A DNA stretch of 36,569 nucleotides from a virus (lineage: Duplodnaviria; Heunggongvirae; Uroviricota; Caudoviricetes): the IMG/VR virus record IMGVR_UViG_2684622554_000001; one strand, given 5' to 3'. A program made the position numbers and the translations under genes. The first letter of the stretch is position 1; the number at the start of each line of letters is the position of its first letter. The notes beneath the pieces were generated by a model, which was given only the letters and a program-made list of their open reading frames with translations, did no database searches and had not been told where the DNA came from. Below are positions 7,658 through 35,207 of this stretch, piece after piece.

Positions 7658-8794
7658 ATGACAAGCTATGTTACATGGGCAAATAAAGGTGGAATAGGTA
7701 AATCAACATTATCTTTCCAATTGGCGTTAAAATACGCGAGATTAAACACGAATAAAAAAGTAATCATAATAGATATGAGCCCTCAGTGTGATGTCTCTAG
7801 AATGTTATTGGGGGGAGGGCATTTTAACGGTGAGCAAAAGATCTTGGATAGAATGACCTCTAATCCAAGGTTGACAATTTACCGGTATCTTGAGGCCTGT
7901 GTTAATGATGTTCCTTCTGGGAGGGGATGGCCTGATTCATTATCATACTTAATTGAACCTAATTCTTTTCGAGACGAAAACGCAGAAAAATTGCCTGATA
8001 ATATTAGTATGGTCTGTGGAGATTTCGACTTAGAGAGGGTTACTCATAGTTTAGATAATTTGCCACAACCTCAACCAAGAGGCGGGCGTGTTCCGTCGGG
8101 TGCTCATTACTCAGCATATTTATTGCCACGCACTTTTCTACGGAAAATGGTGGAGGACTTTGAGCGCGAATACAGGGATGTGACAATTTTTATTGATACA
8201 GATCCATATTATTCGGTAGTAACAACACATCTGGGGCTTCTGGCTGCAGACAGGTTGATTTCGGCATACTCTCCTTCATCTCAAGCAAGCCAGTATGCAG
8301 TATATCGTAGCTTAGAGTTTCTATACGATCCTAATTATGGACTGGTGCAAGAGGTTAATACACAGAGAGCAATATATGGTACCCCTTGGTTTGATAGTTT
8401 AAATAATATAATTACAACACCGAATATATCTGTTGCAAATCTTTATATGGTAGTAAGTAACATGAATACGCCTCAGGCTGGAAGAGGACAACCTCCATAC
8501 AGCCAACCCCAAAAACTACATAGACAATCGCAACAAGAAGTTATATCTAGAATTAATGACACATTAAGTAGTTTGGGGATCGCGCATGATTATGTTCATG
8601 ACTATTTATGGGATCTCAAGAGATTAGGTTTGATTTGTGATTATAATGGTTTTGATTTAGCAACAATTCAATTAGGGGAAAATTATGCGGAACCAAGTGA
8701 TGATGGTAATTATTATGTAAATACTACAGGTGGAACACCGATCCAATTATCATCCTATAATGCTAGGATCGAAACTGTTACATCAAAACTATAA
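7658..8794 (+). CDS. Cargo A: ParA/MinD-type P-loop ATPase with about 180-aa C-terminal extension of unknown function
   Basis: 378 aa. Deviant Walker A (K10-GGIGKST17), A' motif VIIIDMSPQ, Walker B-like TIFIDTDP. AT-rich relative to the phage backbone. Own terminator. No adjacent parB-like or centromere partner. Confidence 0.85.
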   Translation: MTSYVTWANKGGIGKSTLSFQLALKYARLNTNKKVIIIDMSPQCDVSRMLLGGGHFNGEQKILDRMTSNPRLTIYRYLEACVNDVPSGRGWPDSLSYLIEPNSFRDENAEKLPDNISMVCGDFDLERVTHSLDNLPQPQPRGGRVPSGAHYSAYLLPRTFLRKMVEDFEREYRDVTIFIDTDPYYSVVTTHLGLLAADRLISAYSPSSQASQYAVYRSLEFLYDPNYGLVQEVNTQRAIYGTPWFDSLNNIITTPNISVANLYMVVSNMNTPQAGRGQPPYSQPQKLHRQSQQEVISRINDTLSSLGIAHDYVHDYLWDLKRLGLICDYNGFDLATIQLGENYAEPSDDGNYYVNTTGGTPIQLSSYNARIETVTSKL

Positions 8795-8866: not shown

Positions 8867-9886
8867 CTATAGGGTGTATTGTCTGAATTTTATTACATTC
8901 TGACCGAGCCAGCCGTTTATTTCCCGAATCCTGTCCTGTAACGGGATAAGCTCATTGCGGACAAAGACCTTTGCCACTTTCTCAATATCACCCAGCGACC
9001 CGACGTTCTCCGGCTTGCCACCCATCAACTGAAAGGGGATGCGGTGTGCGTCCAGCAGGTCAGCGGCGCTGGCTTTTTTGATATTAAAAAAATCATCCTT
9101 CGTTGCCACTTCACTGAGCGGGATAATTTTAATGCCGTCGGCTTTCCCTTGTGGGGCATAGAGAAACAGGTTTTTAAAGTTGTTGCGGCCTTTCGACTTC
9201 ACCATGTTTTCGCGGAGCATTTCGATATCGTTGCGATCCTGCACGGCATCGGTGACGTACATGATGTATCCGGCATGTGCGCCGTTTTCGTAATACTTGC
9301 GGCGGAACAGCGTGGCCGACTCATTCAGCCAGGCAGAATTAAGGGCGCTCAGATATTCCGGCAGGCCGTACAGCTCCTGATTGATATCCGGCTCCAGCAG
9401 GTGAAACACGGAGCCGGGCGTGAAGGCTGTCGGCTCGTTGAAGGACGGCACCCACCAGTAAACATCCTCCTCCACGCCACGGCGGGTATATTTTGCCGGT
9501 GAGGTTTCCAGTCTGATGACCTTACCGGTGGTGCTGTAACGCTTTTCCAGAAACGCATTACCGAACACCAGAAAATCCAGCACAAAGCGGCTGAAATCCT
9601 GCTGGGAAAGCCACGGATGCGGGATAAATGTCGAGGCCAGAATATTGCGTTTGACGTAAATCGGTGAGCTGTGATGCACGGCAGCACGCAGGCTTTTTGC
9701 CAGACCGGTAAAGCTGACCGGTGGCTCATACCATCTGCCGTTACTGATGCACTCGACGTAATCCAGAATGTCACGGCGGTCGAGTACCGGCACCGGCTCA
9801 CCAAAGGTGAATGCCTCCATTTTCGGGGCGCTGGCGGTCATTTTTTTTGCCGCAGGTTGCGGTGTTTTCCCTTTTTTCTTGCTCAT
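8867..9886 (-). CDS. Q: Portal protein gpQ
   Basis: 339 aa with a basic N-terminus MSKKKGKTPQPAAKK. Position next to cos and P. The start codon ATG (9886..9884) lies inside the IS target duplication, and the native SD is now on the far side of the IS. Confidence 0.9.
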   Translation of the reverse strand: MSKKKGKTPQPAAKKMTASAPKMEAFTFGEPVPVLDRRDILDYVECISNGRWYEPPVSFTGLAKSLRAAVHHSSPIYVKRNILASTFIPHPWLSQQDFSRFVLDFLVFGNAFLEKRYSTTGKVIRLETSPAKYTRRGVEEDVYWWVPSFNEPTAFTPGSVFHLLEPDINQELYGLPEYLSALNSAWLNESATLFRRKYYENGAHAGYIMYVTDAVQDRNDIEMLRENMVKSKGRNNFKNLFLYAPQGKADGIKIIPLSEVATKDDFFNIKKASAADLLDAHRIPFQLMGGKPENVGSLGDIEKVAKVFVRNELIPLQDRIREINGWLGQNVIKFRQYTL

Positions 9887-10079: not shown

Positions 10080-11621
10080 ATGCCAACAGTTCCAATTTCT
10101 ATGAGAAAACTTAAAGAAATTCTTAGGCTTAAATACGGTGTTGGACTCAGCCATCGACAAATTGGTCGTAGTCTTGCAATCTCCCCTTCCGTTGTATCCA
10201 GATATGCTAATCGGGCGGCTCAACTTGGCATAAAGCAGTGGCCCTTACCTACAGGATGGGATGATACAAAACTAAAACATGCGTTCCTTCAGACCCAGGT
10301 TAAGATGAAGAAGCACTCTCTGCCTGACTGGGCTACAGTACACCGGGAACTGCGTAATAAATGCGTGACGCTGCAGCTACTCTGGGAAGAATACTGTGAG
10401 CGTAATCCAGGCGGTTTTTACAGCTATAACCATTACTGCCGGATGTACCGTGAATGGCTCAAAACCACTTCACCATCAATGCGTCAGGTACATAAAGCTG
10501 GCGAAAAACTTTTCGTTGATTACTGTGGACCTACCGTTGGCGTTACCGACCCTGAGACCGGAGAAATAAGAACTGCTCAGGTCATCGTAGCTGTTCTCGG
10601 GGCATCAAGTTACACATGGGCAGAGGCCACCTGGTCTCAGCAGCTTGAAGACTGGGTGATGAGTCATGTTCGCTGCTTCCAGTGGTTGGGTGGCGTTCCT
10701 GAACTTGTTGTTCCGGACAATCTGAAAAGCGCCACATCCAGGGCATGTAAGTATGATCCTGACGTTAACCCTACCTACCAGCAGATGCTTGAGCATTATA
10801 ATGTCGCAGTTTTGCCTGCGCGGCCACGTAAACCGAAAGATAAAGCCAAAGCTGAAGTTGGCGTTCAGGTTGTTGAACGCTGGATCATGGCCCGAATCAG
10901 GCATGAGATCTTCTACAGCCTTGCATCGCTTAATCAGCGCATTCGGGAGTTGCTGGAAAGACTGAATAACAAAATAATGCAGAAGTTGGGTTATTCACGT
11001 GCAGAACTCTTCATCCAGCTTGATAAACCCGCACTGAAGCCTCTTCCTGAAGCCAGTTACAGTTACACCCTGGTGAAGAAAGTCAGAGTTCATGCCGATT
11101 ACCACGTGGAAATCGACAAACATTACTACTCGGTTCCATGTTCGCTGTTAGGCCAGCAACTGGAAGCATGGATCTCCGGAGAACTGGTAAGACTCTTCAA
11201 TCAGGGGCAGGAGGTTGCTGTGCACCCGCGCAAGCGTACTTATGGCTACAGTACCCGCAACGAGCACATGCCTGAAGCTCATCGACAGCATGCCACCTGG
11301 ACGCCAGAGCGTCTTCTGGAATGGGCGGGGCACATAGGCAGTGAAACTCATAGTTATGTGCTTCATATACTGAACTCTCGTCCACATCCGGAACAAAGCT
11401 ATCGCTTCTGCCTTGGACTCCTGAACCTTCATAAAAAATACAGTAAAGCCAGACTTAATGCAGCATGTGCAAGAGCTCTGAAAACAAAGGTATGGCGTCT
11501 GTCAGGTATTAAATCGATCCTGGAAAAAGGTCTGGATAAACAACCTGTTCAGGATCCAAAACCAGATCTGTTATCCACGATGGAACACGAAAACGTACGC
11601 GGCAGTGAGTATTACCACTGA
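10080..11621 (+). CDS. istA: IS21-family transposase IstA
   Basis: 513 aa. N-terminal HTH region and a DDE-type integrase core. Immediately followed by istB. Confidence 0.9.
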   Translation: MPTVPISMRKLKEILRLKYGVGLSHRQIGRSLAISPSVVSRYANRAAQLGIKQWPLPTGWDDTKLKHAFLQTQVKMKKHSLPDWATVHRELRNKCVTLQLLWEEYCERNPGGFYSYNHYCRMYREWLKTTSPSMRQVHKAGEKLFVDYCGPTVGVTDPETGEIRTAQVIVAVLGASSYTWAEATWSQQLEDWVMSHVRCFQWLGGVPELVVPDNLKSATSRACKYDPDVNPTYQQMLEHYNVAVLPARPRKPKDKAKAEVGVQVVERWIMARIRHEIFYSLASLNQRIRELLERLNNKIMQKLGYSRAELFIQLDKPALKPLPEASYSYTLVKKVRVHADYHVEIDKHYYSVPCSLLGQQLEAWISGELVRLFNQGQEVAVHPRKRTYGYSTRNEHMPEAHRQHATWTPERLLEWAGHIGSETHSYVLHILNSRPHPEQSYRFCLGLLNLHKKYSKARLNAACARALKTKVWRLSGIKSILEKGLDKQPVQDPKPDLLSTMEHENVRGSEYYH

Positions 11622-11632
11622 TACGGGATCCA

Positions 11633-12382
11633 ATGATGAATCATCTTTACGAACAACTGACCGCACTTAAACTCACCGGCTTCCGTGATGCGCTTAAAAA
11701 GCAACTTGCTCAACCGGGCACATACCAGGAGCTGGGCTTCGAAGAACGCCTGTCATTACTGACAGCAGAAGAACTAACCTGCCGTGAAAACAGGAAGGCA
11801 GAGCGTCTGATCAAACATGCACGGTTCAGACTTAATGCTGAGTTATCAAAGCTGGATTATCGTAACAATAGAGGGCTGGACAGGGCCCTCATCCGTTCAC
11901 TCAGTCAGGGAAACTGGTTAACCCTGAAACAAAATATTTTACTGACCGGGGCCACCGGCAGCGGTAAAACGTTCCTGGCATGTGCACTTGGTCATAATGC
12001 CTGCCGACAGGGATACAAGGTCTACTATTATCGCCTTAAAGCGCTGATGGAACAGTGCTATCAGGGGCATGCTGATGGAAGATACAGCAAACTTTTGACC
12101 AGGCTGAATAATAGCGATCTGCTGCTTCTGGATGACTGGGGGCTGGAACCTCTCTCATCAGAACAGCGTAGCGACCTGCTGGAAATAGTGGATCTGATGT
12201 ACCAACGAGGCTCAATCATCGTAGTGAGCCAGTTGCCGGTGGAAAACTGGTACAAAATGATCGGAGACTCCACACATGCGGATGCCATCCTAGATCGACT
12301 GGTTCATGGCAGTATCAAGATCGAACTTAAAGGAGAATCAATGCGGAAAATACAATCTCCGTTGACCGAAGGAGATCAGTGA
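11633..12382 (+). CDS. istB: IS21-family ATP-binding helper IstB
   Basis: 249 aa. Walker A GATGSGKTF and Walker B LLLLDDWG, AAA+/DnaC-like. Confidence 0.9.
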   Translation: MMNHLYEQLTALKLTGFRDALKKQLAQPGTYQELGFEERLSLLTAEELTCRENRKAERLIKHARFRLNAELSKLDYRNNRGLDRALIRSLSQGNWLTLKQNILLTGATGSGKTFLACALGHNACRQGYKVYYYRLKALMEQCYQGHADGRYSKLLTRLNNSDLLLLDDWGLEPLSSEQRSDLLEIVDLMYQRGSIIVVSQLPVENWYKMIGDSTHADAILDRLVHGSIKIELKGESMRKIQSPLTEGDQ

Positions 12383-12471: not shown

Positions 12472-14244
12472 TCAGTAAAACTCCAGAATGGTGGATGTCA
12501 GCGGGGTGCTTATACCGGCGGTGAGTGGCTCATTTAACAGGGCGTGCATGGTCGCCCAGGCGAGGTCGGCGTGGCTGGCTTCCTCGCTGCGGCTGGCCTC
12601 ATAGGTGGCACTGCGTCCGCTGCTGGTCATGGTCTTGCGGATAGCCATAAACGAGCTGGTGATGTCGGTGGCGCTGACGTCATATTCCAGACAGCCACGG
12701 CGGATAACGTCTTTTGCCTTGAGCACCATTGCGGTTTTCATTTCCGGCGTGTAGCGGATATCGCGCGCGGCGGGATAGAACGAGCGCACGAGCTGGAACA
12801 CGCCGACACCGAGGCCGGTGGCATCAATACCGATGTATTCGACGTTATATTTTTCGGTGAGTTTGCGGATGGATTCAGCCTGAGTGGCAAAGTCCATGCC
12901 TTTCCACTGGTGACGCTCAAGTATTCTGAATTTGCCACCGGCCACCACCGGCGGTGCCAGCACCACGCATCCGGCGCTGTCGCCACGGTGTGACGGGTCG
13001 TAACCAATCCATACCGGGCGGGAACCGAACGGATTGGCGGCAAAGGGTGCATAGTCTTCCCATTCTTCCAGCGTGTCGACCATGCAGCGTTGCAGCTCCT
13101 CGAACGGGAACACCGACGCCTTGTCGTCAACAAATTCACACATGAACAGGTTTTTAAAATCGTCGGCGCTGTTTTCGCGTTTGAGCTGTTCAATGTCGAA
13201 CAGCGTGCAGCCACCTTTCAGGGCGTCCTCAATGGTGACAATCTGCCGCCACTGGCCGTCTGCACAGAGAAGCCCACCGGCAAGGGCGTTATGACTGACG
13301 TCGATTTCCACGCGTTCGGCGGCGCTGGCGCGTCCCCGGTTGAACAGTTCACCCGACCAGAACGGGTAGGCGTCGTGCGCCAGCGTGGACGGGGTGGAGA
13401 AATAGGTCGAGCGCAGGTGACTCTGTGAGGCCATACCTGATGCCACCTTACGCAGTACCTGAAAATTCGGGATCCAGAAAATCTCATCGACGTACAGGTC
13501 GCCGTTATGGCTCTGCGCGGTGTTGGAGTTGGTGCCGAGAAAAATCAGTTTTGCGCCGTTATTGCCCAGGACAATCGGGTCACCGGTCAGGTCAACGTCA
13601 ACCAGCCGGGCAAAGGCGATGATGTATTCGCGGAACACATACGCCTGCGTTTTACTGGCCGACAGAAAAATCTGGTTATGACCGGTTTTCAGGGCGCGCA
13701 GCAGCGCCTCGCGGGAAAAATAAAACGTCGCGCCAATCTGGCGGGATTTCAGGATATCGCGGATGCGGTGCTCAAGCCCGGCGCGATACCAGTGCAACTG
13801 ATACTCGAAAGACTGCTCAAAGAAAATCTGCTCCAGCTTTTCGATGGCCTCGTCACTGAAAAAATTCTTTTTCGGTTTGCGACGCCCGCCTTTGTTGCGG
13901 TTAGCGACGTTCGGATTAAGGTCTGCCTCGTTGCCGGTCTGACTGTAACGGTTGACCCGTGCCAGTCGTTCAATCTGGCGTCCGAGCAGGTCAATTTCCT
14001 TGAAGTCACCGCCGGTTTTCTGCGGTTTGATGATGAGCTGGGTCAGCCGCGCTTCCAGACTCATTTCGACACGGCTGATGGGGGCAACGCTGTCCCAGCC
14101 GTCGCGCTGTTTCCAGCTCTGCACCGTCGGGCGTTTCATCTGCAACATGGCGGCAATCTGCGGCACGGAAAACCCCTGCCAGTACAGCAGCGCCGCCTGA
14201 CGACGCGGGTCGTGTAAAAGAGTGGTGTCTGTGGTGATGGTCAT
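12472..14244 (-). CDS. P: Terminase large subunit gpP
   Basis: 590 aa from the ATG at 14244 with a GAGG SD (the track start at 14274 is a TTG). Length equals P2 gpP. Stop TGA at 12474..12472 overlaps the right-hand IS target duplication. Confidence 0.95.
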   Translation of the reverse strand: MTITTDTTLLHDPRRQAALLYWQGFSVPQIAAMLQMKRPTVQSWKQRDGWDSVAPISRVEMSLEARLTQLIIKPQKTGGDFKEIDLLGRQIERLARVNRYSQTGNEADLNPNVANRNKGGRRKPKKNFFSDEAIEKLEQIFFEQSFEYQLHWYRAGLEHRIRDILKSRQIGATFYFSREALLRALKTGHNQIFLSASKTQAYVFREYIIAFARLVDVDLTGDPIVLGNNGAKLIFLGTNSNTAQSHNGDLYVDEIFWIPNFQVLRKVASGMASQSHLRSTYFSTPSTLAHDAYPFWSGELFNRGRASAAERVEIDVSHNALAGGLLCADGQWRQIVTIEDALKGGCTLFDIEQLKRENSADDFKNLFMCEFVDDKASVFPFEELQRCMVDTLEEWEDYAPFAANPFGSRPVWIGYDPSHRGDSAGCVVLAPPVVAGGKFRILERHQWKGMDFATQAESIRKLTEKYNVEYIGIDATGLGVGVFQLVRSFYPAARDIRYTPEMKTAMVLKAKDVIRRGCLEYDVSATDITSSFMAIRKTMTSSGRSATYEASRSEEASHADLAWATMHALLNEPLTAGISTPLTSTILEFY

Positions 14245-14417
14245 GAATACCTCGCCGTGATGAATACACGGCAAGGCTACTGAGTCGCGCCCCGCGATTC
14301 GCTAAGGTGCTGTTGTGTCAGTGATAAGCCATCCGGGACTGATGGCGGAGGATGCGCATCGTCGGGAAACTGATGCCGACATGTGACTCCTCTAATCACT
14401 ATTCAGGACTCCTGACA

Positions 14418-19743: not shown

Positions 19744-20172
19744 TGCCGTCACGGTGCTGAAAACCAGCCCCGAGATGCTGCGGATATTCGTGGATAACGG
19801 GAGTATTGCCTCCACACTGGCGACGTCGCTGTCATTCGAAAAGCGTTACACGCTCAATGTGATTGTGACCGACTTTACCGGTGATTTTGACCTGCTCATT
19901 GTGCCGGTGCTGGCGTGGCTGCGGAGAATCAGCCCGACATCATGACCACCGACGCAGGCCAGAAAAAGGGCTTCACGTTTTATGCAGACATCAACAATGA
20001 CAGCAGCTTTGATATCAGCATCAGCCTGATGCTGACCGAGCGCACGCTGGTCAGTGAGGTGGACGGCGCGCTGCATGTGAAGAATATCCCGGAACCCCCG
20101 CCGCCGGAGCCGGTCACCCGCCCGATGGAGCTTTATATCAATGGCGAACTGGTGAGCAAGTGGGATGAATGA
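19706..20172 (+). pseudogene. R: Tail completion protein gpR, interrupted by an apparent -1 frameshift near 19891..19945
   Basis: Two overlapping ORFs (19706..19945 and 19915..20172) in frames differing by one base. Total 467 nt, one short of the 468 nt needed for a 155-aa P2 gpR. Confidence 0.7.
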
Positions 20173-20617
20173 GTTTAAGCGTTTTGAAGACCGGCTGGCC
20201 GGACTTATTGAATCGCTGTCACCGTCAGGGCGTCGGCGACTGAGTGCCGAACTGGCGAAACGTCTGCGTCAGAGTCAGCAGCGTCGGGTGATGGCACAGA
20301 AAGCCCCGGACGGCACACCCTACGCGCCACGCCAGCAGCAGAGAGCCAGAAAAAAGACCGGTCGCGTTAAGCGAAAAATGTTTGCGAAACTTATCACCAG
20401 TCGTTTTTTGCATATCCGCGCCAGCCCGGAACAGGCATCAATGGAATTTTACGGCGGGAAGTCACCGAAAATCGCCAGCGTGCATCAGTTTGGTCTGTCG
20501 GAAGAAACCCGGAAAGACGGTAAGAAAATTGATTATCCGGCGCGTCCTTTGCTCGGCTTTACCGGTAAGGATGTGCAGATGATTGAAGAGATTATCCTGG
20601 CTCACCTCGATCGTTAG
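20165..20617 (+). CDS. S: Tail completion protein gpS
   Basis: 150 aa, the same length as P2 gpS. Confidence 0.85.
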   Translation: MNEFKRFEDRLAGLIESLSPSGRRRLSAELAKRLRQSQQRRVMAQKAPDGTPYAPRQQQRARKKTGRVKRKMFAKLITSRFLHIRASPEQASMEFYGGKSPKIASVHQFGLSEETRKDGKKIDYPARPLLGFTGKDVQMIEEIILAHLDR

Positions 20618-20767
20618 TTGTGCAATTTTTTTACGCTTTATTGCTGAGTTGTTGATTGTTGTATAACACTCTTTGTATTTTCGTCGGATAAGTTTTAATT
20701 GCCACTTGAAAATATACAGTCGATTGGGGCATAAGGATTCATCAATGGTGATCGTTTGAATGTTTAA

Positions 20768-20798
20768 GGCCGCGATAAAATGTCGCGGCCAGTTTTTT
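20768..20798. terminator. Rho-independent terminator between S and cargo B
   Basis: GGCCGCGA-TAAAATG-TCGCGGCC 8-bp stem followed by TTTTTT. Confidence 0.6.
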
Positions 20799-20821
20799 CC
20801 GTTTGCGAACTGACCAGGTTG

Positions 20822-21565
20822 TTATCTGGTTAAATAAGTGAGCTCACTCTCTTTAGGTATTAGCTGAGTGTCTCCTCCCCATTCGTTCATGATGTTTTTT
20901 CTCGCATTCCAGTATTCTTGGTAAGTATCTTGATGAACAGTGTAGATACTTGCTAAAAGCCAGTGTTGATACTTAAGAGTCGTGTATTGGTATTCTTCTA
21001 TTATCGGTAAAATGAATAAGTTTTTTTGCTTTAGTGAGATTAAATATTCTTTTGTTTGTTTGGTGGTTCTGTCATTGTTTAAGATTCTTTCAATCTTAAA
21101 TGAAAAGCCGTGCATGTTTATATTTCTTTGGAGGTGCATGAATGATGATATTGATGGGGCGATCATGTTTTGATGCGTCAGGATGTTTCTTAAATCCTCC
21201 ATTAATTTTATTACTGGATTATTTCGGAATTCATGATTGATGAATGCCTCTGATTTGATTTTAATGTCGGCAATATTTAATGCTTTTGTTTTAAGTAGGT
21301 TGCGCGTTGAATCTCTAAATGATAATGCTGAAGATATATAATTGAAAAGGTGTCTTGATATGTTTAAATGTTCTTTTTTAAATTTGTCTCTGTTAAATGA
21401 ATGACGGGAAACAATGTCAGGGGAGTTGAATTTGCTTAATTCATGTTGGACAACTTCGTAATTGGCAATATGCATATGTCCAAGTAAATTGGTGTCGGAG
21501 ATTTTTAAATACTCTTGGTGGGCGATGGTGTCTTTTTGATTTTCCCAGATTTGATATTTATCCAT
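20822..21565 (-). CDS. Cargo B: AT-rich hypothetical protein with two Rx4H motifs (possible HEPN-type or abortive-infection-like)
   Basis: 247 aa on the strand opposite the tail operon. Strongly AT-rich. Own SD (AAGGA). R126-x4-H131 and R147-x4-H152. Confidence 0.8.
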   Translation of the reverse strand: MDKYQIWENQKDTIAHQEYLKISDTNLLGHMHIANYEVVQHELSKFNSPDIVSRHSFNRDKFKKEHLNISRHLFNYISSALSFRDSTRNLLKTKALNIADIKIKSEAFINHEFRNNPVIKLMEDLRNILTHQNMIAPSISSFMHLQRNINMHGFSFKIERILNNDRTTKQTKEYLISLKQKNLFILPIIEEYQYTTLKYQHWLLASIYTVHQDTYQEYWNARKNIMNEWGGDTQLIPKESELTYLTR

Positions 21566-21648
21566 ACTTCAGTTCCTTCTTGATTGTGCCAAAAATGATA
21601 CAACGGATTGTAATGGTTTATCGAGTATATATCTCTCATTATTGCCGT

Positions 21649-22284
21649 ATGAACACATTATCAAATATTCAGGAACTCGCGCGCGCACTGCGCAACATGA
21701 TACGCACCGGCATTGTCGTCGAAACCGACCTTAACGCCGGTCGCTGCCGTGTGCAGACCGGCGGCATGTGCACCGACTGGCTTCAGTGGCTGACCCATCG
21801 CGCCGGGCGTTCGCGCACATGGTGGGCACCTTCCGTGGGGGAACAGGTGCTGATTCTGGCCGTGGGCGGTGAACTCGACACGGCGTTCGTTCTGCCGGGG
21901 ATTTATTCCGGCGATAACCCCGCGCCGTCTGCGTCGGCGGATGCCCTGCATATCCGTTTCCCTGACGGGGCGGTGATTGAATATGAACCCGAAACCAGTG
22001 CACTTACGGTAAGCGGAATTAAAACGGCCAGCGTGACGGCCTCTGATTCTGTTACTGCCACGGTGCCGGTGGTCATGGTGAAAGCATCAACCCGCGTCAC
22101 CCTGGACACACCGGAGGTGGTCTGCACCAACAGGCTGATTACCGGCACGCTGGAAGTGCAGAAGGGCGGGACGATGCGCGGTAACATTGAACACACCGGC
22201 GGTGAACTTTCATCAAACGGTAAAGTACTGCATACCCATAAACACCCCGGCGACAGCGGCGGCAAAACCGGGAGTCCTCTATGA
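21649..22284 (+). CDS. V: Baseplate spike gpV
   Basis: 211 aa from MNTLSNIQELARALRNM, matching the P2 gpV length. The track start at 21580 is a TTG. Confidence 0.9.
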   Translation: MNTLSNIQELARALRNMIRTGIVVETDLNAGRCRVQTGGMCTDWLQWLTHRAGRSRTWWAPSVGEQVLILAVGGELDTAFVLPGIYSGDNPAPSASADALHIRFPDGAVIEYEPETSALTVSGIKTASVTASDSVTATVPVVMVKASTRVTLDTPEVVCTNRLITGTLEVQKGGTMRGNIEHTGGELSSNGKVLHTHKHPGDSGGKTGSPL

Positions 22285-26821: not shown

Positions 26822-28048
26822 ATGTTACAGTTCAGCTTTGTATCAAATGACGTTGTTATGACTTACGACGGTGACAGCGGAGAACAAATAATTTGGGTTT
26901 GGGAGAGTTTAAATAAATTTCAAACAGTATGCATTTCACGAATTTTTAACTTTCAACTCCAGGATTTGAGAAACCCACCGTCAACCGTTCAGGATTTTAA
27001 TGATTACGAATATTCCTTTAATTTTGGCACGCTTAATAATGAATACATAACAGTTCCGGGACGGATTCTAAGCATTAATCGAGATGTCCTTATACATAAG
27101 TCCATCAAGCTTGAAAGGAAAGTATTTGCGTCAGAACGCAACGTCTCCATTTTTGGTCGGCTTTCAAAACTACTCGAACACACTAATCCCATCATCATCG
27201 GAGGAGATAAGCCGGAAGCTATACCAAAAAGCGTATTCCAGGAGTTGCAAAGTAAATTCCCCAACACAGGGGAACTGGATCGCTATGCTAATGCAAGGGT
27301 TCACGCTATTCTCGCAGGTTATCTTGATGGTATGAAAGATGCTCGCGAACGGTATGAACATTACCTAAACAGAAAAACAGTGATCAGAAAAACCGACAAA
27401 CTGGATTTAGAAGTTTTAAATAAGCTCGAAATTGAGAAATATACACTCATAAGAGACATTATCCAGGATGCGTTGAATAACAAAACTAACTTGTCTGAAG
27501 ATGACTGGCAGAGCCTGATGATACCCTTCATCACATTACTTTTTCCAAAATATATCAAGGTCCTCGAGAAGGTTAAAATTTTCGACTATTACTCTAATCC
27601 TTCGGCTAAAACAAATCGGTTTATAGACATTGCACTGGTGGATGCAAACGGCAACCTTGATATCATCGAAGTCAAAAAGCCGTTTGATGATAAGATCCTT
27701 CGCAAGACGCCCTATCGCGATAACTATATTCCTACATCAGAACTTAGCGGCGGTATTATGCAGGCTGAAAAGTATATTTTTCATTTATCTAAATGGGGTG
27801 TTAAGGGTGAAAAAGAGCTTACGAATGCCTACAAGAATTCTCTGCCAGCGGGAATGTGTATTCGTATATCTAACCCAAAAGCCATCATCATTGTCGGGCG
27901 CGATCAGATAGCGAACGGTAACATGACCGACGGTCAGTTGCTTGATTTTGAGATAATCAAACGTAAGTACGCCAACATGATAGACATATTGACGTACGAC
28001 GACCTGTTGCGTCGACTTAATAATACGATTGAAGCATTGAAAGGTTGA
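26822..28048 (+). CDS. Cargo C (Z/fun slot): protein with C-terminal PD-(D/E)xK nuclease signature, possibly Shedu/DUF4263-like
   Basis: 408 aa, AT-rich. RFID269IALVD...DIIE283VK285 with Q314 downstream. Own SD (GAGGAAAT). Located between G and FI. Confidence 0.85.
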   Translation: MLQFSFVSNDVVMTYDGDSGEQIIWVWESLNKFQTVCISRIFNFQLQDLRNPPSTVQDFNDYEYSFNFGTLNNEYITVPGRILSINRDVLIHKSIKLERKVFASERNVSIFGRLSKLLEHTNPIIIGGDKPEAIPKSVFQELQSKFPNTGELDRYANARVHAILAGYLDGMKDARERYEHYLNRKTVIRKTDKLDLEVLNKLEIEKYTLIRDIIQDALNNKTNLSEDDWQSLMIPFITLLFPKYIKVLEKVKIFDYYSNPSAKTNRFIDIALVDANGNLDIIEVKKPFDDKILRKTPYRDNYIPTSELSGGIMQAEKYIFHLSKWGVKGEKELTNAYKNSLPAGMCIRISNPKAIIIVGRDQIANGNMTDGQLLDFEIIKRKYANMIDILTYDDLLRRLNNTIEALKG

Positions 28049-35036: not shown

Positions 35037-35063
35037 AAAAAATAAGCCCGTGTAAGGGAGATT
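35037..35063. repeat. attR core, 27-bp P2-type attachment core (AAAAAATAAGCCCGTGTAAGGGAGATT)
   Basis: Direct repeat of the 647..673 copy. Forms the 3' terminus of cyaR. Confidence 0.85.
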
Positions 35064-35123
35064 ACACAGGCTAAGGAGGTGGTTCCTGGTACAGCTAGCA
35101 TTTTATGGGTTATGTTTTTCAGC
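35037..35123 (-). ncRNA. cyaR: CyaR (RyeE) Hfq-dependent sRNA; its 3' end is the prophage attachment core
   Basis: The reverse complement matches the recalled 87-nt E. coli CyaR sequence (GCUGAAAAACAUAACCCAUAAAAUGCUAGCUG...CGGGCUUAUUUUUU). Confidence 0.9.
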
Positions 35124-35207
35124 GAAACGGATGATAACCTTAATAAATGCAGCTGTATGTGATCGGTTTCTAAGAATTTTCCATCCGGGAAAAATAATCG
35201 AAATTAA

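Follow-up and report, generated by a model that had tools for sequence, protein, structure and literature searches.

A single-gene cargo between tail genes S and V of a P2-like prophage as a candidate HEPN-like ribonuclease of abortive infection

In HEPN ribonucleases (RNases) a dimer builds a composite Rx4H site, cleavage is independent of metal, and the enzymes are latent until a trigger arrives. HEPN toxins are also an established theme in the accessory slots of prophages. The lactococcal proteins AbiD, AbiD1 and AbiF (Pfam Abi_2), AbiU2 and AbiV are HEPN proteins proposed to abort infection by means of RNA cleavage (PMC3710099). The pEK499_p136 HEPN family (PF18736, of the HEPN clan and also labelled 'HEPN family nuclease') has been described as linked to restriction-modification (R-M), ART/Macro, NamA and Pgl operons, and the HepT (DUF86) toxins of HEPN-MNT pairs are represented by the structures PDB 7ae2 and 8xdj. 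Phage P2, for its part, carries old, tin, fun(Z) and orf30 as non-essential, AT-rich genes that lie in variable slots against the late operons, and according to the P2 annotation Old, Tin and Fun exclude other phages. The present work concerns a cargo gene in one such slot. The window, by which we mean the whole stretch of 36,569 nucleotides (nt) in the IMG/VR virus record IMGVR_UViG_2684622554_000001, is a P2-like prophage, and the gene lies between its tail genes S and V. On the strength of sequence comparison and structure prediction, we put forward as an even proposition that this cargo encodes a stand-alone, all-alpha HEPN-like RNase, which would serve the prophage as an abortive-infection effector and was acquired in its S-V slot on an AT-rich cassette with no other gene. 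The features on which the argument depends are as follows.

20822..21565, minus strand: cargo coding sequence (CDS), 247 amino acids (aa), ATG start, from an open reading frame (ORF) call
20165..20617, plus strand: gene S (tail completion), left flank, PF05069 at 2.3e-43
21652..22284, plus strand: gene V (baseplate spike), right flank, Phage_base_V and Phage_spike
20618..21668, no strand: exchangeable cassette, from alignments with prophages that have an empty slot or an alternative cargo

The fraction of G+C (GC) is 0.33 in the cargo ORF against 0.51 for the whole window; it stays at 0.30-0.39 across 20600-21600, with both flanks at 0.55-0.61. These values and the coordinates bear out the description given in a first-pass annotation, that of an AT-rich, 247-aa gene on the opposite strand between S and V. 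The sequence AAGGAA is found 7 nt 5' of the ATG. Alleles of the cargo differ at 23-25% of their residues with dN/dS values of 0.16-0.18, and because of this ratio we regard the ORF as a real gene, under purifying selection (dN/dS about 0.17).

Like old, tin, fun(Z) and orf30 of P2, the cargo is a non-essential, AT-rich gene in a variable slot and runs against the late operons, although it is unrelated to them in sequence. It is likewise similar to the Abi proteins in being a single, AT-rich gene that is found on mobile elements and has no obligatory partner. However, neither the cargo protein nor its relatives were matched by Pfam Abi_2 or by the PADLOC models for AbiD, AbiF, AbiU and AbiV, and homology is suggested only at the level of the superfamily. 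The HepT toxins, which are far shorter, are kept inactive by an MNT nucleotidyltransferase encoded next to them, whereas the cargo is without such a partner. The likeness to PF18736 goes further and is taken up below, following a consideration of the motifs themselves.

21173..21190, minus strand: codons of R126-N-I-L-T-H131, candidate HEPN catalytic motif (R-phi-x3-H) with invariant R126 and H131
21341..21343, minus strand: codon of N75, third invariant residue of the 132-sequence alignment, in helix 59-90, the putative HEPN helix 2
21110..21127, minus strand: codons of R147-N-I-N-M-H152, second Rx4H, not conserved and judged fortuitous

The first-pass annotation had drawn attention to two Rx4H motifs as a possible HEPN-type active site, and both are present where it placed them. 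The count of two is in itself weak evidence, because 12% of shuffles of the cargo protein also contain two Rx4H; two copies of R[NDH]x3H are found in 0.6%. Conservation is more informative. In an alignment of 132 homologues, with a mean column identity of 18%, three columns alone are invariant, N75, R126 and H131. N35, R88, L125, Y192 and W202 are kept in at least 90% of the sequences, and N127, which provides the polar residue immediately after the Arg, is Asn in 82%. The pattern R-N-[YF]-x-x-H occupies the motif position in nearly all of the 150 relatives listed. The second motif behaves differently. Among the six closest relatives R147 is replaced by Lys, Asn or Asp and H152 by Ser, the distant relatives lack the motif, and in the predicted structure it falls inside a beta-hairpin insert. 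Since R147/H152 varies in the closest relatives and is lost further out, only R126/H131 is meaningful, and the suggestion that R147/H152 might serve as an active site is not upheld.

An AlphaFold model computed with a deep alignment reached a pLDDT of 95.5 and a pTM of 0.91 (an earlier run with only 6 sequences, pLDDT 57, was discarded). The model is a helical bundle with helices at 14-44, 59-90, 99-113, 117-131, 185-214 and 216-229. Application of DSSP to the model ends helix 117-131 at H131, which places the motif at the C-terminal end of a helix; a loop (132-137) follows, and then a beta-hairpin (138-157) and short helices. Conservation is highest in residues 59-90 and 117-134 and lowest in 91-116, the least conserved structured segment, which has 50% identity between alleles and 15% invariant columns versus 72% for 117-134. 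Helix 59-90 contains the invariant N75 and also R71, which is kept in 89%. These characteristics may be compared with the published description of the HEPN domain, a four-helix up-down bundle of two alpha-hairpins, in which an Rx4-6H motif with Asn, Asp or His after the Arg lies at the end of helix 3 before a loop, a second conserved polar or acidic residue (often as Ex3[KR]) lies in helix 2, and the insert between helices 2 and 3 is poorly conserved (PMC3710099). The conserved Rx4-6H, the polar residue after the Arg, the place of the motif at a helix end before a loop and the poorly conserved insert all have their counterparts in the predicted cargo protein, when its helices are numbered on the assumption that 59-90 is helix 2; N75 and R71 are candidates for the polar residue of helix 2, and the long helices may correspond to the four-helix core.

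The comparison with PF18736 was made at the level of profiles. The archetype of this family, from plasmid pEK499, yielded 121 homologues, all PF18736, of which 63 were aligned. When the cargo family was compared by hhalign with the archetype alone, there was one alignment, which set LRNILTH on MRNSVAH. A profile-profile comparison with the 63-sequence alignment gave E = P = 0.012 and placed R126/H131 on the invariant R96/H101. With relaxed settings the two families were collinear over 153 columns: N35 (in G-N-Y) fell on MGNY and Y192 on Y145, and the two invariant Asn residues, N75 in RLLHNFLASA and N44 in TLLxNCLLGL, were matched to each other. The two families thus share the order of their landmarks. 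Near the N-terminus there is a G-N-Y, then an LLxN[FC]L helix with an invariant Asn, next the invariant Arg-x4-His, whose Arg is followed by a polar residue, and towards the C-terminus a conserved Tyr; from Asn to Arg the distance is 51 residues in the cargo family and 52 residues in PF18736. Both consist of small, all-alpha, single-domain proteins encoded in R-M or defence loci and on mobile elements, and a literature search found no experimental characterisation of either. They differ in that the cargo family is about 80 residues longer, with an N-terminal extension and, after the motif, an insert of about 50 residues that comprises the beta-hairpin and short helices. In an empirical null, the real score was reached by 1 of 60 column shuffles and by none of 41 reversed profiles (p about 0.01-0.02). 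Reciprocal scans with hidden Markov models (HMMs) gave 17 and 11 weak matches, nearly all of them motif-to-motif, compared with 0 on reversed sequences and 0-2 per run on shuffled sets. Because the family members are not independent, this evidence amounts to only p about 0.01, and we regard the link to PF18736 as suggestive, not as proof.

Several observations weigh against the assignment. PF18736 was picked for the comparison after one relative had matched it weakly, so that there was a prior hint, and the hhalign probability for this family is only 3.5%, with support of about p = 0.01. When the 132 relatives were compared at permissive thresholds with Pfam, including all of its HEPN families, and with NCBIfam and PADLOC, no family was found; the sole exception was a single relative that matched PF18736 at E 0.0057, which is at the level of noise and below the Pfam threshold. 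Position 68 of helix 2, where many HEPN families have an acidic residue, is Glu in 73% of the relatives and Asn in the cargo protein itself. Finally, Foldseek, which had been named along with the first-pass annotation as a route to HEPN and Abi folds, found nothing in the PDB (best E 0.14) or in BFVD (best E 0.35); fold searches with this predicted structure are non-specific. A profile search of the PDB with the family also found nothing, the Pfam model of PF18736 did not match the cargo protein at E ≤ 1, and a single RnlA sequence gave no signal against the divergent family profile (A2), which is uninformative.

In view of these points, it might be supposed that the protein is a helical bundle outside the HEPN superfamily, in which the conserved Asn, Arg and His serve some other chemistry or binding, and that the gene is a moron for lysogenic conversion. 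We consider this unlikely. An invariant R-N-x3-H at the end of a helix, together with an invariant Asn in the putative helix 2, corresponds to the published HEPN signature, and the four landmarks are collinear with those of PF18736 at nearly identical spacing, in an analysis in which the reversed controls were empty. Membership of the cargo protein in the HEPN superfamily is probable, as judged from the alignments and the model, though not established. The HEPN-type reading of the first-pass annotation is in part supported by R126/H131, by the position of this motif at a helix end and by the weak profile link to PF18736, and it is not helped by the second motif.

The surroundings of distant relatives provide a different kind of evidence. 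In nine neighbourhoods that were examined there was no conserved partner gene, and four of them adjoin R-M or defence NTPase genes. One of these four has an MmeI-type R-M enzyme, another an Eco57I-type methyltransferase/R-M enzyme with SocA/Panacea and SNase, a third an nSTAND NTPase with a DUF4011-AAA_11/12 helicase, and the last a KAP NTPase with a helicase-methyltransferase and GIY-YIG. A further relative lies inside a Firmicute-type prophage beside the terminase, one is truncated by an insertion sequence (IS), and the remaining three are uninformative. From this genomic context, to which the Shedu gene in the Z/fun slot of the cargo's own prophage also belongs, the role of the cargo is probably to protect the host against other phages.

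A scheme for such protection can be proposed. In the lysogen the cargo would have a promoter of its own and be transcribed in the direction opposite to the late operons. In its latent state the protein would probably be a homodimer, with two R126/H131 motifs in contact, and infection by a competing phage would activate it; the surface that senses the trigger might be formed by the variable inserts (residues 91-116 and 135-184), although this is a guess. Metal-independent cleavage of RNA would then shut down translation, and the infection would be aborted. Dimerisation, metal-independent cleavage and latency with a trigger are carried over here from what is known of HEPN RNases, and we infer also the RNase activity, the expression in the lysogen and the anti-phage phenotype. 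Sequence features around the cargo start codon that are relevant to its expression are the following.

21585..21602, plus strand: TGT-N12-ACA box, P2 Ogr-type late activator site of the V promoter, read from the sequence
21624..21595, minus strand: sigma-70-like candidate promoter for the cargo, TCGATA-18-TATCAT, consensus scan only, 9/12 matches
21653..21624, minus strand: sigma-70-like candidate promoter for the cargo, TTCATA-18-TATACT, consensus scan only, 9/12 matches

The activator box is 20 bp from the cargo start codon and is kept in the alleles L019 and L020; in phage P2 an activator site is annotated at the same distance from V. Both candidate promoters overlap the V promoter region, and their matches to the consensus are no evidence of function. 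Because the cargo promoter region overlaps the V activator box, expression of the cargo could be coupled to the lytic programme. This possibility leads to an explanation in which the protein is a HEPN-like RNase with a role other than defence: it might keep the prophage stable, as a toxin or an addiction module, or it might be an RNase of the P2 cycle, engaged for example in host shut-off or in the processing of transcripts. The motif, fold and profile evidence would be the same as for an abortive-infection effector, and HEPN toxins are common in toxin-antitoxin systems. We nevertheless regard this explanation as distinctly unlikely, for three reasons. First, the cassette contains no candidate for an antitoxin. 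No adjacent MNT gene is present, since the cassette consists of one gene and a non-coding part that has only chance ORFs of 27-33 aa, and the layout is that of a single gene in all 17 loci compared. A type III (ToxIN-like) system also finds no basis in the cassette, which has no tandem repeats, no Rfam match and no significant RNA structure (z -0.9). An RNA antitoxin or a small-ORF partner in the 200-bp 3' region was considered as well and gained no support. Second, the gene is dispensable. The cassette region was matched in 1672 of 5426 complete E. coli genomes, and the majority of the records sampled across this ranking have nothing in the slot, which is about 965 bp shorter in most phages. 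The cargo family occupies it in 18 genomes and 14 IMG/VR contigs, always antisense between S and V (17/17 loci). Third, synonymous divergence (dS) between cargo alleles is about 0.8 versus 0.03-0.11 for the adjacent S and V, a 7- to 25-fold excess, which indicates that the cassette has been exchanged independently of the backbone. Such swapping of alleles fits accessory genes of conflict better than it fits phage housekeeping.

Other occupants of the slot bear on a further alternative. In E. coli prophages, other S-V slots hold unrelated single genes that are also AT-rich (GC 0.34-0.36), of which three are given here; none has a Pfam or PADLOC assignment.

L014 1391-2176, minus strand: S-V cargo of P2 Orf30 type, 261-aa putative membrane protein
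L015 1422-2465, minus strand: S-V cargo of 347 aa with C-terminal hydrophobic segments
L016 1337-2077, plus strand (same strand as S/V): S-V cargo of 246 aa with an HNH-like CxxC...H...CxxC signature

The accessory slots of prophages carry genes for counter-defence and for superinfection exclusion, and two of these alternative cargos look like membrane proteins, so the present cargo might be imagined as a counter-defence protein or a non-catalytic exclusion factor. We give this idea little credence. The catalytic-type triad is invariant across very divergent bacteria, which argues for an enzyme, relatives reside in chromosomal R-M or defence neighbourhoods as well as in phages, and the AlphaFold model is free of transmembrane and signal segments.

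Homology to P2 Tin or P2 Orf30 is scarcely credible: at 247 aa the cargo protein is close in length to Tin (253 aa) and Orf30 (261 aa), and Orf30 resides in the same slot, but the divergent family profile gave no signal on either protein. The resemblance to Tin had been raised in the first-pass annotation on grounds of size. In direct alignment, the best BLASTP segment with Tin was 45 aa long at E 0.039 in a single pairwise comparison, which is not meaningful, and the PADLOC Tin model did not match. With Orf30 the best BLASTP E was 0.74; this protein, which has transmembrane-like segments and no Rx4-6H, was also outside the list returned by hmmsearch with the family profile.

The family to which the HEPN-like candidate belongs is narrow in its close form and wide in its distant form. 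Close members form 7 clusters among 5.8 billion proteins, all hypothetical and drawn from E. coli and one Shigella, and were not found in the GTDB species representatives. A profile search of 1.84 billion representatives returned 337 distant relatives, most of about 240 aa and some of 450-720 aa. No Pfam, NCBIfam or PADLOC model matches the cargo protein. The consensus of the family and, for the long relatives, the C-terminal halves were also compared with Pfam, again with no named family as the outcome, and a literature search found no mention of the cargo family. The PHROGs scan identified the cargo CDS as a member of phrog_12680 (full-length match, 5.8e-165), which is of unknown function. 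The remark in the first-pass annotation that no family was recognised therefore still holds, this functionless phrog being the only assignment. The cargo family carries no functional annotation in any library tried; the kind of system is familiar. We suggest, tentatively, that the cargo protein is the founding member of a large and unrecognised HEPN clade, with at least 337 clusters at 50% identity in diverse bacteria and metagenomes, that acts as a one-gene abortive-infection system, and that the S-V slot is a further defence hotspot with several unrelated single-gene systems. The hallmarks of the clade would be the beta-hairpin insert after the motif and, in some members of about 700 aa, fusion to a C-terminal domain.

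Concerning these fusions, the proteins P0037, P0052, P0076 and P0144 (about 700 aa) and P0068, P0082 and P0109 have an N-terminal HEPN-like domain joined to 200-450 residues. Two C-terminal types are apparent among them. The fused regions have no Pfam match and could be sensor or second effector domains. A tandem-HEPN arrangement in the relatives of about 700 aa was considered and dropped, since hhalign of the C-terminus against the divergent family profile was empty.

With respect to the slot, the orf30 region has been described as one of three regions with horizontally acquired genes in P2-like phages (PMC3091744). This report, the S and V flanks and the exchange of cargos all agree with the first-pass placement of the gene at the P2 orf30 position, in a variable slot. 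The literature on defence hotspots of P2 names old/tin, Z/fun and a tail-to-CI site, and a further study mentions additional minor hotspots, one of them "within the tail genes" and not resolved to S-V (PMC13586616). In the P2 hotspot studies compared, the S-V (orf30) slot is not singled out. If the proposals made above are correct, a compact family of single-gene anti-phage RNases has been missed by annotation of the DefenseFinder/PADLOC type and by Pfam, and N75, R126 and H131 would be ready targets for catalytic mutants. In P2-like phages the S-V slot would then be a further reservoir of defence genes beside old/tin and Z/fun, on which hotspot studies concentrate, and at least three other, unrelated S-V cargos would become obvious candidates.

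The borders of the cassette are sharp. Other P2-like phages cease to resemble the window just past the stop codon of S, and the resemblance returns about 5 codons into V. The cassette has at its two ends a 9-bp direct repeat, GTTGTGCAA at 20617-20625 and ATTGTGCCA at 21583-21591, which corresponds to the 5' half of the Ogr-type TGT-N12-ACA activator box. In a prophage with an empty slot, the S stop codon is immediately followed by GTTGTGCCA, so that each allele of the cargo carries its own version of the V promoter region. Cassettes may be exchanged by recombination at the activator box. At the S end, one more element was found.

20768..20800, plus strand: GC-rich hairpin and T-run from a terminator scan, with the hairpin at 20768-20790 and a 10-bp stem

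The hairpin lies 32 nt past the cargo stop codon, between the convergent S and cargo genes. In the alleles L019 and L020, which are about 80% identical, the stem shows a compensatory change from G:C to A:T, and the O-operon terminator of phage P2 is annotated at the equivalent place. To judge from these sequence features, the hairpin terminates the late O operon after S. The terminator that the first-pass annotation had set beside the cargo gene is thus corroborated by the scan and by the stem change.

In some genomes the cargo copies show signs of decay. Two copies in IMG/VR (L032 and L034, 3001-3740) match only from residue 62 onward, and protein P0007 is a truncated form of 156 aa. In the genome L002, whose cargo copy is 99.8% identical in DNA, gene V (21050-21685) is annotated as a pseudogene with an internal stop.

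Elsewhere in the prophage there are other inserted genes. The Z/fun slot holds a full-length Shedu SduA defence gene at 26822-28048 on the plus strand (PADLOC PDLC04067, 1.2e-219; Pfam SduA_C, 3e-33). In the old/tin slot, which has replication gene A on one side and portal gene Q on the other, a 378-aa ParA/AAA_31-like ATPase (7658-8794, plus strand, 4e-10) has no PADLOC match and is possibly a further cargo gene. An IS21-family element at 10080-12382 (plus strand) separates the portal gene Q (8867-9886, minus strand) from the terminase gene P (12472-14274, minus strand), and consists of IstA (10080-11621, rve and Mu-transpos_C_2) and IstB (11633-12382, IstB_IS21 at 2e-67). Q and P abut in phage P2. 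The prophage is probably defective for packaging, with its cargo genes intact. Just past its ogr end lies the gene for the small RNA CyaR (RyeE), at 35040-35125 on the minus strand (Rfam RF00112, 100.7 bits), and beside it a 453-aa ORF runs to the end of the window; since the related genome L002 has yegQ at this position, the region marks the chromosomal attachment region.

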